Below are positions 34,216 to 53,137 of a stretch of DNA of 53,137 nt, piece after piece; position 1 is the first letter of the stretch; each line of letters starts with the position of its first letter. This DNA comes from a virus (Duplodnaviria > Heunggongvirae > Uroviricota > Caudoviricetes). The stretch lies in the IMG/VR virus record IMGVR_UViG_2645727867_000003; one strand, 5' to 3'. A program made the position numbers and the translations under genes. Below the pieces are notes generated by a model. The model was not told the DNA's origin, did not search any database, and saw nothing but the letters and a program-made list of their open reading frames with translations.

Positions 34216-34282
34216 TTTGAATTAACCTTAGCAAAAAGACTTAATACCAGTATATTCCAAAAATGGCATTTTGGGAGATTAC

Positions 34283-34455
34283 TTCTGCAAACCGCTCCCG
34301 CTAAATACATCCCTGATTTCCTGCGCAGTCTGTTCAAAACGCCCGGTATCCAGCTCAACGCCAGTTGCACGACGCCCCAGCGCCATCGCTGCTTTAACTG
34401 CCGAACCCTACCCCATGAAGAAATCTGCAACCAGGACACCCAGCAGAAGGGAGAC
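34283..34455 (-). pseudogene. remnant 3' fragment of a DNA methyltransferase gene (paralogous to 35819-35990)
   Basis: Nucleotide alignment to the 3' end of the intact methylase gene. Translation …ADFFMG*GSAVKAAMALGRRATGVELDTGRFEQ… carries an in-frame TAG. Confidence 0.55.
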
Positions 34456-41046: not shown

Positions 41047-41181
41047 TCAGTAAATCTGAGGATTTTATGCGCAAGAACAATGACTTTTTCTGTCTGCCGT
41101 TTATACAATCTGAATTACGTCTGTTTTTTGAACACGGATAAATCAGCAAGCATTCTCAAATAAAGATTGCCTCCATAGTCC

Positions 41182-41209
41182 ACATAGTGTAACACTATGT
41201 GTTATATAA
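41182..41209 (+). promoter_or_regulatory. operator palindrome overlapping a -10 element upstream of the higB-like gene
   Basis: ACATAGTG-TAA-CACTATGT perfect inverted repeat followed by TATATAAA. SD GAGG before the ATG at 41225. Confidence 0.45.
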
Positions 41210-41224
41210 AATGCAGAGGCAGGT

Positions 41225-41597
41225 ATGCGAATTTTCAAAAACGCCTGGTTTGAACGTTTCGCCCGAAAACATCGGATTTCCGATAAATCGCTGCGCAAAA
41301 TCGTGGAGCAGGCCGATAAGGGGGATCATATCCGCAAATTTGGGTAGTGGTGTCATTAAACAAAGATTAGCCCGAAGTGGTGGCGGAAAATCAGGCGGTT
41401 ACCGGACAATAATTTTTTACCGCGTTGCAGAAAAAGCCTTTTTCATCTACGCATACGCAAAGAATGAACGAGAGAATATCACTGCTATAGAGGAAAATGC
41501 TTTTCGAAAAGCCGCTCCCCATGTCCTCAATCTTACTGATGAACAGCTGGCACAATTGATTCAACAAGGCCAGTTCACGGAGGTACCCAATGAGTAA
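41225..41597 (+). pseudogene. HigB/RelE-like toxin gene interrupted by a +1 frameshift in a G5 tract
   Basis: Frame A from ATG 41225 reads MRIFKNAWFERFARKHRISDKSLRKIVEQADKGDHIRKFG* (stop at 41345). The rest of the family sequence (…GVIKQRLARSGGGKSGGYRTIIFYRV…) continues in frame B. The shift maps to GGGGG at 41310-41314. Confidence 0.6.
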
Positions 41598-41907
41598 AAA
41601 TTACCGCAGTGATGCACTTGCATCTGTACATGAAATGATGGAGTCACTCCATGATATCGGTGCAATCACAAAACAAACTATGCGCGAATTCGATGAAACT
41701 TGTCTTCAGCCTGCGCCGGTAATGTCTCCAGAAAGGATCCGTGCACTGCGAGAACGAGAGCATCTGTCTCAACCTGTTTTTGCCAGATACCTCAACGTCA
41801 GTAAAAACCTGATATCAGACTGGGAACGAGGAGTGAAACGCCCGGGAGGTGCAGCTCTTCGGCTTCTTTCAGTTGTCGAGAAAAACGGGATCCAGGTAAT
41901 ATCCTGA
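41590..41907 (+). CDS. HigA-like antitoxin (XRE-family HTH)
   Basis: …LSQPVFARYLNVSKNLISDWERGVKRPGGAALRLL… HTH. Start overlaps the toxin stop. Confidence 0.7.
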   Translation: MSKNYRSDALASVHEMMESLHDIGAITKQTMREFDETCLQPAPVMSPERIRALREREHLSQPVFARYLNVSKNLISDWERGVKRPGGAALRLLSVVEKNGIQVIS

Positions 41908-42009
41908 TATTCTAATACAACAAAACCCGCCGAAGCAGGTTAAGTGCGGGTGCGTTGAGGATGCCTGACACATCAGAGGTGGCGAGGGATTTCTCCCTCG
42001 CCAGGTCTC

Positions 42010-42165
42010 TTACTCCTCAGGTTCGTAAGCTGTGAAGACAGCGACCTCCGTCTGGCCGGTTCGGATTCGTACCTCGCAGAGGTCTTTCCTCGTTACCAGT
42101 GCCGTCATTATGACGGTTAAACAGATGACAATCAGGGCGATTAACATCGCCTTTTGCTGCTTCAT
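42010..42165 (-). CDS. hokD: Hok/Gef-family type I toxin (HokD/RelF-like)
   Basis: MKQQKAMLIALIVICLTVIMTALVTRKDLCEVRIRTGQTEVAVFTAYEPEE. SD AGGAG upstream. Confidence 0.8.
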   Translation of the reverse strand: MKQQKAMLIALIVICLTVIMTALVTRKDLCEVRIRTGQTEVAVFTAYEPEE

Positions 42166-42436
42166 AGCCTGCTTCTCCTTGCCTTTCGGCACGTAAGAGG
42201 CTAACCTACATGTGCAAAGCATGAAATTGGCCTCAGATTAATGTTAAGCGTCCTGCAAGACGCGTAATGTTAACTGGGGCTTTTCTCTGTCTGCCTTACG
42301 GCGGCATGCCCGAGGCAGACAGCCTCAAGCACCCGCAGCAATTCTACTTAACTCTTCTTTCCCCGCAAATCATTTTATCCCCGATGGTAATGTTCTCCCG
42401 ATATGGGAATTCCCATATCAAGGTTAACTCAATCGG

Positions 42437-42988
42437 TTAAAGCTCCATTAATTTTCCGGCCAGTTCATCTCGTGGCATTACCAGCCATCCGCGCGATTTA
42501 AGCAAAGCCAGGGCTTCTTCAACCGTCACCAGCTGGCCTGGCGCATAACTTCGGATGAAGGCGGTTTTATCGTCACGGATCGCCAGGTGAAAATCGATAT
42601 TCATTTTTCCCATAGCCCGCTCTTTCTCGTACTGGTTGAAGTAACTGTCTTCGAGTTTTTCGAATACTTCCCACGCCTGATCGGTTTCGAGCATTTTTGC
42701 ATGACGGGCTGCTCCGCGTTCTGTCCAGAGGATGAGAGTGCGGGTTTTGGGAGAAATTTTCACCTCATTTTGCGACTCGTTTAAAACTAGTCGCAAATTT
42801 TTGAGCTCATCACCAACAGCTTTAAAGAAGTGTTTTCCCTCAATAAATCGAGATTTATTTTCATGGTGATTCTGCTGTATACGGATTGCTTCTGTTCCGT
42901 AAAGGCGGGCGAGTAACTCAGTTGTGATTACAGGAATCTGGTTATAAGTGACAGGGGAAAGGTTTTTGACAGTAACTTGAGTCGTCAT
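42437..42988 (-). CDS. ORF6N-domain antirepressor-like protein (intact paralog)
   Basis: N-terminal …ITTELLARLYGTE…RFIEGKHFFKAVGDELK… ORF6N-like. 183 aa. Confidence 0.6.
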   Translation of the reverse strand: MTTQVTVKNLSPVTYNQIPVITTELLARLYGTEAIRIQQNHHENKSRFIEGKHFFKAVGDELKNLRLVLNESQNEVKISPKTRTLILWTERGAARHAKMLETDQAWEVFEKLEDSYFNQYEKERAMGKMNIDFHLAIRDDKTAFIRSYAPGQLVTVEEALALLKSRGWLVMPRDELAGKLMEL

Positions 42989-43329
42989 GATAACGCCCTC
43001 TGGTTGATGAATTTAACTATCACCACCTTCAGGTCTCAATCATCAGGTGGCGAGACGTACAGGGTTGAGACTACCGGATCAACCAACCGGCCAGCCTTTC
43101 GGCTGCCCCATACGCCTCACCATAATTCAGATGTGCGTGCGCATACGACAATAAAAAACACGCTCGCGGCGTGTGTCTGTCGCGGTTGAATATCCGGGGT
43201 CTCAATCCCGACGGTCAACTCGACCGTGCGGTGAATATAGCCCCGGATTAGTAATTACGTCAACCCCAGCGGCAAATCGAATAAACCACCAGCGCTACCG
43301 CCATTGCAACTCCTGCCGTTACGAATGCC

Positions 43330-51780: not shown

Positions 51781-52029
51781 ATGGCAAGACTTATTCTGCT
51801 CACTGAGTGGGCAAAAGAGGAATTCAGTGAACCGGTCCCTACTCCGGGCACGTTAAGTAAATACGCTAAAGCCGGAATGATATTTCCTCTCCCCAAAAAA
51901 GTTGGAAGACACTGGCGAGTGGATCCTCGAGCTCGCTTTGTCGGAATGGTAAACAAGCCGGAAGTGATCGCCACAGATCACCCTGCTTTGAAGAGGATAC
52001 TGGAAGATGGCGCGCCCACGAAAATATAA
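51781..52029 (+). CDS. xis: excisionase
   Basis: MARLILLTEWAKEEFSEPVPTPGTLSKYAKAGMIFP… Xis-like winged helix. Overlaps the int start. Confidence 0.75.
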   Translation: MARLILLTEWAKEEFSEPVPTPGTLSKYAKAGMIFPLPKKVGRHWRVDPRARFVGMVNKPEVIATDHPALKRILEDGAPTKI

Positions 52030-53137
52030 AACTGAAGTTCCGGGATTATCTCCGTATTTTGACAAAAGAAATAACAAAGTTTACTGGCGTTACAGGCATC
52101 CCATAACAGGAAAAAATCACGGGCTCGGCAGTATTGACCAGAAACAGGCAGAAGCTATTGCAGCAGAAGCGAACAGCCGTCTTGCCAGGCAACAAATGGA
52201 ACAAATGCTCACTCTGCAGGAGAAAATTATTCGTGATACCGGTGGTTCATCAACCGTTTCTGTTTTTCTGAATAGTTACCGAAAAATTCAACAGGAAAGA
52301 TATGAAAACGGAGAGATCAAACTCAACACACTGAAACAGAAAGCATCCCCTCTCAGGGTATTTGATGAACGTTTTGGTACCAGACCATTAGATGCCATAA
52401 CCGTAAAAGATGTGGTATCGGTGCTGGAAGATTACAAGGCAAAAGGACATAACAGAATGGGACAAATTTTCAGGAAAGTACTGATTGATGTTTTCCGGGA
52501 GGCCCAGCAAACGGGCGATGTCCCGCCTGGCTTTAACCCTGCAGAATCGGCAAAAAAACCACAGGTACGGATATCACGGCAACGACTGACCTTTGATGAG
52601 TGGATGATGATTTATAATGCAGCGGAAAAGGATGGCTACTTTTTACAGCGTGGTATGCTGCTGGCACTGATGACAGGCCAGCGCCTTTCAGATATTTGCA
52701 AAATGAAATTTTCGGATATCAGGGATGGTTATCTTCATGTCGAACAGCAAAAAACAGGAACCCGGATTGCCATCCCTCTGGCTCTGCGTTGCGATAAATT
52801 AAATCTCACCCTGGATGATGTGGTGTCATCCTGTCGCGATTGCGTTCTTAGTCCGTGGCTATTGCACCACCATCATGCTAAAGGGACAGCTAAGCGCGGC
52901 GGGATGGTTAAGCCAGCAACGTTGACAGTTGCATTTAAAAAAGCCCGGGATTCTGTGGATTACAACTGGCGCGCTAATGGCACTCCACCCTCTTTCCATG
53001 AGCAGAGATCTTTATCAGAGCGATTGTTCAGGGAGCAGGGAATTGATACCCAAATTTTGCTGGGTCATTCGAATCAAAAAATGACCGATATTTACAACGA
53101 TGTACGCGGTAAAGAGTGGAAAAAACTGGTCATTTGA
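52007..53137 (+). CDS. int: tyrosine integrase (lambda Int family)
   Basis: 376 aa. C-terminal catalytic region with …LLGHSN…MTDIYN… and conserved R/H/Y context. Stop at the window end. Confidence 0.9.
   Translation: MARPRKYKTEVPGLSPYFDKRNNKVYWRYRHPITGKNHGLGSIDQKQAEAIAAEANSRLARQQMEQMLTLQEKIIRDTGGSSTVSVFLNSYRKIQQERYENGEIKLNTLKQKASPLRVFDERFGTRPLDAITVKDVVSVLEDYKAKGHNRMGQIFRKVLIDVFREAQQTGDVPPGFNPAESAKKPQVRISRQRLTFDEWMMIYNAAEKDGYFLQRGMLLALMTGQRLSDICKMKFSDIRDGYLHVEQQKTGTRIAIPLALRCDKLNLTLDDVVSSCRDCVLSPWLLHHHHAKGTAKRGGMVKPATLTVAFKKARDSVDYNWRANGTPPSFHEQRSLSERLFREQGIDTQILLGHSNQKMTDIYNDVRGKEWKKLVI

Follow-up and report, generated by a model that had tools for sequence, protein, structure and literature searches.

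A prophage-borne HigB-2/HigA-2 toxin–antitoxin operon of Escherichia coli with a frameshifted toxin gene and an intact antitoxin gene

The window analysed here, a 53,137-nt stretch recorded in IMG/VR as IMGVR_UViG_2645727867_000003, carries a small two-gene operon that lies on the + strand, in antisense orientation to the phage genes around it. The operon consists of a toxin gene, whose frame is broken in a run of five guanines, and a complete antitoxin gene (Table 1). Its neighbours are a DUF968/RusA/Q block on one side and, on the other, an ORF6N gene together with hokD. Two separately deposited assemblies, those of E. coli 94-3024 and of O104:H21 CFSAN002236, match the right-hand 25 kb of the window at 100% identity. 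According to the annotation, the element is a lambdoid prophage of ~53 kb, with an integrase adjoining ompW and a partial ompW copy at the far end, and stx is absent from the annotated genes. With a frameshift in its portal gene and a number of partial genes, the prophage is defective and already decaying.

Table 1. Features of the toxin–antitoxin locus in the window
Feature	Position	Strand	Description
Inverted repeat CACATAGTGT-A-ACACTATGTG	41181-41190 + 41192-41201	.	Perfect 10+10 nt, 1-nt spacer, 5' of the toxin RBS
Toxin SD-like motif AGAGG	41215-41219	+	5-nt spacer to ATG at 41225; direct reading of the sequence
5' toxin ORF	41225-41347	+	40 codons, TAG at 41345-41347
G5 homopolymer, frameshift site	41320-41324	+	One G above the intact G4 allele; codon 33/34
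Toxin remainder, native residues 34-123	41325-41597	+	+1 frame, TAA at 41595-41597
Antitoxin RBS GGAGG	41579-41583	+	6 nt before ATG; direct reading, putative function
HigA-2-like antitoxin, intact	41590-41907	+	105 aa; ORF, Pfam HTH_3, VcHigA-2 match
Terminator-like hairpin between convergent antitoxin and hokD	41924-41941	-	Consensus scan only; context

The toxin start and the Shine–Dalgarno-like motif in front of it lie where an earlier note on this DNA, made from the letters alone, had read them, and the frame that begins there does end after 40 codons. The product would contain 33 native residues, MRIFKNAWFERFARKHRISDKSLRKIVEQADKG, followed by seven out-of-frame ones, DHIRKFG. The same note had blamed an extra G in a GGGGG run; the run and the frameshift are there, but the coordinates that it gave, 41310–41314, are 10 nt off. 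The run is the only one of four or more guanines within 41180–41910. Beyond it the toxin sequence continues in the next frame, as had been noticed, and deletion of a single G restores an ORF of 372 nt encoding 123 aa. The frame of the G5 toxin is otherwise without indel or stop in all 14 G5 sequences of a 1.4-kb alignment, and the lesion is young and formally one slippage event from repair. The β-sheet core and R47, R60, Y77 and K79, the equivalents of catalytic residues, are all encoded 3' of the frameshift; by comparison with VcHigB2, the 40-aa stub would comprise two N-terminal helices only. Overlapping the premature stop is a TTG-initiated C-terminal ORF of 85 aa, which re-initiation could in principle produce.

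The antitoxin gene is undamaged and its ATG overlaps the end of the toxin gene by 8 nt (ATGAGTAA), which agrees with the earlier description. Its own ribosome-binding site would permit translation uncoupled from that of the toxin. The C-terminal part of the protein is an XRE-type helix-turn-helix (HTH_3, E 1e-7) and the N-terminal ~44 residues are presumed to be the toxin-neutralising segment. Genomes with four guanines in the run (G4) and genomes with five (G5) encode an identical antitoxin, WP_000042395.1. The palindrome that had been reported beside the toxin start is a perfect repeat and presumably serves as an operator for the dimeric helix-turn-helix antitoxin. Site 41186, in the left arm, is an A in the window, which makes the repeat perfect, and a G in the G4 alleles and in a second G5 haplotype (haplotype B, see below), where nine of the ten positions match; the right arm is conserved in a diverged “type-2” allele. 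No promoter matching the sigma-70 consensus was detected over the palindrome; the scan placed the nearest candidate at 41080–41109.

Once repaired, the 123-aa toxin matches PF06296 from end to end (positions 1–120 of 120, 161 bits, E 1.4e-47; cut-off 27 bits), and the 40-aa stub alone matches positions 1–35 (39.9 bits, E 5.8e-10). By sequence, the nearest solved structures are those of VcHigB-2 (toxin; phmmer E ~4e-4) and VcHigA-2 (antitoxin; 5jaa, E 6.7e-8, residues 45–99). The labels HigB-like and HigA-like given in the first reading hold and can be sharpened to HigB-2 and HigA-2; on sequence grounds, the pair is a type II toxin–antitoxin (TA) system of this type. The HigB families of Rts1 (PF05015) and of K-12 (PF09907) are not the ones matched, and no NCBIfam model was found for the repaired toxin. 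V. cholerae HigB-2 belongs to PF06296 (“RelE”), a family of ribosome-dependent mRNases whose genes stand in toxin-then-antitoxin order (PMC11980606, a 2025 review). The catalytic residues of VcHigB2 established by mutagenesis, R51, R64, Y82 and K84 (PMC5416850), align pairwise with R47, R60, Y77 and K79 of the repaired toxin. Family membership, together with the upstream palindrome, predicts ribosome-dependent mRNA cleavage, neutralisation by the antitoxin and autoregulation for the intact E. coli pair. Its likeness to V. cholerae higBA-2 (PDB 5JA8, 5JA9, 5JAA, 8A0X) covers the common Pfam family, at full length once the toxin is repaired, the toxin-first order, the overlapping genes, the C-terminal XRE helix-turn-helix of the antitoxin and the four catalytic residues. 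The V. cholerae genes, however, are located in the superintegron, whereas the E. coli copy sits in a lambdoid prophage and has a frameshifted toxin, and the similarity between the two is distant. A functional HigB-2/HigA-2 module has an uninterrupted toxin frame; here the frame is interrupted by the G5 run and the stop that follows it. The window holds a broken member of the family, a toxin pseudogene with an orphan antitoxin. Literature searches with the RefSeq protein accessions and among STEC studies found nothing specific to this E. coli pair.

A scan of GTDB species representatives yielded 80 homologous loci with 42–64% identity, mostly from Proteobacteria. In 77 of them the toxin runs in a single frame across residues 3–118 or more, one of the three exceptions being a Lamprobacter MAG with an internal deletion of its own in the toxin, and a HigA-2-like gene lies directly downstream on the same strand in 78. 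These two counts identify G4 as the ancestral functional state. The single-frame homologues, together with the full-length PF06296 match after repair, also indicate that the locus is a broken gene and not a pair of chance ORFs.

The comparison of orthologous prophages that the earlier note had proposed turned up both alleles. Probes of 80/81 nt centred on the G run were searched for exact matches in 5,426 complete E. coli genomes, and G4 was found in 113 of these, the window's version of G5 in 37, and G5 with a linked synonymous SNP (41293 A) in another 14. The G5 total is 51 genomes, ~30% of the ~169 that carry the cassette; six carriers have two copies of it. The G4 carriers include O157:H7, O26, O145, O103 and O111 strains; the G5 carriers are mostly non-O157, with genomes of 4.8–5.1 Mb, and their named serotypes are O104:H21, O91, O178:H19, O22:H8 and O43. 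The G4 cassette of the O157:H7, O26, O145, O103 and O111 prophages (toxin WP_001217944.1, antitoxin WP_000042395.1) has >99.5% nucleotide identity over 1.4 kb, the same DUF968/RusA and hokD/ORF6N neighbours and an identical antitoxin, and differs in having one G fewer, and hence a single 123-aa toxin ORF, and in the G of the left palindrome arm. In IMG/VR, 12 contigs have G4 and four have G5 (n = 16). In a collection of 15 billion proteins, at least 1,000 contigs encode the intact toxin, and the same lower bound applies to the 40-aa stub and to the 85-aa fragment. The G-run allele was not found by an exact-pattern scan of the GTDB species representatives, and the phage collection contained one diverged relative only. 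The HigBA-2-type module is common in STEC prophages, where intact and disarmed alleles co-exist across serotypes.

Other lesions are found in relatives of this toxin. The type-2 allele of the cassette, present in phage PhiR12_3, strain ML35 and the O104:H4 outbreak lineage, has ~80% nucleotide and ~85% amino-acid identity. It is likewise a lambdoid-prophage pair with an intact antitoxin and a toxin lost through a 1-nt frameshift in a homopolymer, but the site and the direction are different (A5 to A4 at codons 14–16, a −1 shift), and so are the neighbouring genes. Among 36 complete genomes with this allele, 28 have A4, many of them clonal O104:H4 isolates, and six have the intact A5. In O104:H4 2009EL-2071 a second one-base deletion is found further down the toxin gene, with the antitoxin undamaged. 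A rare type-1 protein (P0024, 87 aa, three contigs) corresponds to a change of T6 to T5 at 41422–41427 on a G4 background. No damage to the antitoxin ORF was seen in any of the 34 complete loci examined. Two prophages of strain ST130 carry the cassette, one as G5 and one as G4, and each encodes antitoxin WP_000042395.1.

We consider it highly probable that G5 is a stably inherited loss-of-function allele of a prophage HigB-2/HigA-2 operon, produced by the ordinary, toxin-first erosion of a TA system. In the intact G4 operon, the first gene would encode a 123-aa RelE-fold, ribosome-dependent mRNA endonuclease, which the N-terminal segment of the antitoxin would neutralise, while the C-terminal helix-turn-helix dimer would repress the operon, presumably at the upstream palindrome. 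Insertion of a single G into the G4 run at codon 33/34 would make ribosomes stop after 40 codons, so that the β-sheet and all the catalytic residues would not be made from the G5 allele. The antitoxin would still be produced from its own ribosome-binding site and is expected to repress its own promoter, becoming an orphan antitoxin. The G5 allele has spread through mosaic lambdoid prophages, mostly those of non-O157 STEC. Lesions of the toxin survive because loss of the antitoxin first is lethal. The suggestion that the toxin has been inactivated and the antitoxin kept is therefore accurate as a description of the locus. Similar remnants have been described elsewhere: in a Photorhabdus survey, most of the predicted TA systems that were non-functional had significant truncations of the toxin ORF (PMC13617665), orphan antitoxins were highly abundant in an E. 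coli survey (PMC10790755), and the decay of ccdO157 (Mine et al. 2009, as cited in PMC13617665) is presented there as a case of an eroded chromosomal type II TA system. Such eroded chromosomal systems and orphan antitoxins share with the present locus an inactivated toxin, an intact antitoxin and a degrading mobile element; erosion of the ccdO157 type differs in that it concerns another toxin family, and the lesion described here is one reversible base, present in ~30% of carriers. Anti-addiction is the role usually proposed for leftover antitoxins (PMC13617665, PMC10790755).

This role leads to the alternative that survives best, in which the orphan antitoxin is kept by selection, either for anti-addiction or immunity against an identical HigB-2 carried by a co-resident or incoming prophage or as a transcriptional regulator, and in which knockout of the toxin was itself favoured. 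Such a reading would add to erosion, not replace it. Orphan antitoxins acting as counter-defence or anti-addiction factors have been described (PMC11825919, PMC10790755). In the present family, toxin lesions occurred independently at three homopolymers in two allele lineages while every complete antitoxin locus checked is intact, and the O104:H4 toxin has accumulated two lesions and its antitoxin none. The double lysogen ST130 joins a disarmed and an intact copy with the same antitoxin protein, the antitoxin has its own ribosome-binding site, and the palindrome has been perfected in the window's haplotype. Toxin-first decay is, however, expected without any benefit, since antitoxin loss first would be lethal. 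The tally of ~3–4 toxin events and no antitoxin event, in targets of 372 and 318 nt, respectively, is not significant (~p = 0.16 for 3 vs 0). The alleles are also young, with at most five SNPs per 1.4 kb, and the intact antitoxin may reflect lack of time; moreover, the six carriers with two copies are few among ~168. The pattern of toxin-only lesions, double lysogen and perfected palindrome fits retention of the antitoxin but is at most suggestive with so few independent events and such young alleles. On balance, selection for keeping the antitoxin is possible but unlikely. Somewhat less likely again is the more specific proposal that the toxin was knocked out repeatedly under selection at short homopolymers (G4 to G5, A5 to A4, T6 to T5) and that the antitoxin is kept as a trans-acting shield or prophage regulator. 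If that were true, the antitoxin could cancel addiction or abortive infection caused by the same TA system when other prophages carry it, and G5 would represent an adaptive “disarmed” state instead of neutral decay.

The distribution of G5 over haplotypes bears on a different idea, already raised in the earlier note, namely that replication slippage in the G run turns the toxin on and off as a phase-variable switch. An alignment of 29 copies over 1.4 kb places G5 on three local haplotypes: haplotype A, which is the window's own and has A at 41186, haplotype B, defined by 40925 A and 41293 A, and an intermediate one represented by a single sequence, STEC1585. The G-run state and site 41730 are found in every one of the four possible combinations, in violation of the four-gamete test, and in a neighbour-joining tree of 3.6 kb one G4 sequence is nested among G5 sequences. 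The presence of G5 on several haplotypes, the four-gamete violation and the fact that the homopolymer lesion is the sole damage to the gene and reversible in one step are what a switch would produce. The prophages are mosaic, however, and one and the same haplotype is found beside replication and Q modules that differ between genomes; recombination among such prophages explains the spread of G5 over haplotypes at least as well as repeated insertion, and the G may have been inserted more than once or may have moved by recombination. Known contingency loci have longer repeat tracts than the 4–5 nt of this run. A search with the window's 851-nt haplotype gave 35 best matches, in each of which the annotated toxin is split, i.e. 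G5; any G4 revertant would have scored high enough to be one of these, so there are no revertants near this haplotype (0 of 35). Haplotype B is G5 in 14 of 14 genomes, and neither G3 nor G6 was seen in the E. coli genome probe matches or the IMG/VR contigs. Within the aligned copies, the state of the run goes with the local haplotype. With a 5-nt run and no length variation inside haplotypes, the locus does not look like a phase-variable contingency locus, and we regard a slippage switch as very improbable.

Slightly more improbable still is a small, regulated output of full-length toxin from the G5 run, through either +1 ribosomal frameshifting or transcriptional slippage. A +1 slip on GGG-G would let the P-site tRNA-Gly pair perfectly again, the run belongs to an AGGGGG string resembling a Shine–Dalgarno sequence, and the frame beyond it is open throughout and carries no damage. 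The prfB frameshift, however, depends on a slow or stop codon after the slippery codon and on a correctly spaced stimulator. Here the next zero-frame codon is GAU, which is common and neither a stop nor rare, and no separate stimulator was seen upstream at prfB-type spacing. Nor is the shift conserved, the toxin being in a single frame in 77 of 80 homologues and in 113 of ~169 E. coli copies, and no one recoding mechanism would rescue all of the related alleles, which are broken elsewhere and in the opposite (−1) direction. A programmed +1 frameshift of the prfB kind does not match these features, and functional recoding of G5 is unlikely as far as the sequence can tell.

Although homopolymer indels are a frequent error of some sequencing platforms, an error of sequencing or assembly, the other possibility raised at first, has next to no probability and, as an error in one assembly, is ruled out by the population counts: G5 recurs in identical form in 51 complete genomes, which come from many laboratories, countries and years, and also in the two separate assemblies matching the window and in four of 16 IMG/VR contigs; at least 1,000 contigs encode its protein fragments, and specific flanking SNPs are linked to it.

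The locus is, then, a broken member of a known family, and the underlying phenomenon is well known and matters little by itself. The G5 allele and the frameshifts of the O104:H4 lineage nevertheless form a natural series in which anti-addiction or cross-immunity by an orphan antitoxin can be tested. In RefSeq the broken toxin has no pseudogene mark and is labelled “RelE/ParE family toxin”. It is split there into WP_001365959.1 (40 aa) and WP_024173694.1 (85 aa, TTG start, 41340–41597), and in some genomes it is annotated as one 132-aa ORF with a GTG start (41199–41597). Calling a broken toxin as one or two normal proteins in this way inflates the toxin counts of TA surveys.

The toxin gene of this cassette family has been broken by homopolymer frameshifts more than once. 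In the diverged allele, the type-2 cassette, the toxin is interrupted by a −1 frameshift at codons 14-16, where a run of five adenines is reduced to four (A5 to A4), and the antitoxin is intact despite this lesion. The A4 frameshift is found in 28 of the 36 complete E. coli genomes carrying the type-2 allele, including the O104:H4 outbreak lineage, whose type-2 toxin has a second 1-nt deletion in addition. The A5 to A4 change is an event independent of the extra G (G5) that breaks the toxin of the window. A third independent homopolymer lesion, T6 to T5, lies on an otherwise intact G4 toxin and is seen as the 87-residue protein MDX1861008.1, which is rare among the public proteins (3 contigs). 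A distant toxin homologue in a Lamprobacter sp. MAG has an internal deletion of ~34 nt near residues 28-40, which also shifts the frame; because the source is a MAG, this deletion may be an assembly error.

The broken and intact alleles coexist in E. coli ST130 (NZ_CP043478.1), which carries a G5 copy and a G4 copy in two different prophages. The antitoxin proteins of the two cassettes are identical, and this strain is a natural setting for trans-neutralisation by the antitoxin. Upstream of the toxin, position 41186 is A in the G5 haplotype of the window, which makes the palindrome, the presumed operator, perfect (10/10); the equivalent position is G in the G4 alleles and in the other G5 haplotype (9/10). 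The RefSeq pipeline gives the broken toxin no pseudogene label, and its fragments (WP_001365959.1, WP_024173694.1 and WP_236940275.1) are called normal “RelE/ParE family toxin” proteins, so that toxin counts in surveys of TA systems would be inflated.

The prophage of the window is itself probably defective. The annotation of the identical RefSeq record marks a frameshift in the portal gene and lists several further prophage genes as partial or interrupted by internal stops. The insertion is at ompW, with the integrase abutting an intact ompW and a partial copy at the opposite end. No stx genes are annotated in the record of this prophage, the host nonetheless being an O104:H21 strain.

The type I toxin gene hokD is found directly downstream of the antitoxin and convergent with it; as hokD/sok adjoins the antitoxin, two TA systems lie side by side. 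Rfam matches to C4 antisense RNA, isrK and, weakly, a c4-a1b1 target are located just upstream of an antirepressor-like ORF6N gene, and the region resembles an antirepressor module under antisense control, as in P1/P7.

Coordinates of the features, in the window unless a locus (L) is named
Feature	Position	Strand
Portal gene	about 16984-19568	-
Further damaged genes, among others	about 28492-28740, 34279-34440	
RefSeq toxin fragments	41199-41597	
T6 to T5 (equivalent position)	41422-41427	
hokD and Rfam “sok” match (117 bits)	42010-42165 and 42160-42334	-
ORF6N gene	42437-42988	
C4 (69 bits), isrK (51 bits), weak c4-a1b1	43043-43240	-
Insertion at ompW	52007-53137 and beyond; L004 37484-38122; L117 29597-29722	
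Type-2 cassette, phage PhiR12_3	L112:2540-2910	
Type-2 cassette, E. coli O104:H4 2009EL-2071	L115	
Type-2 cassette, ML35	L116	
Lamprobacter homologue	L111:3001-3335
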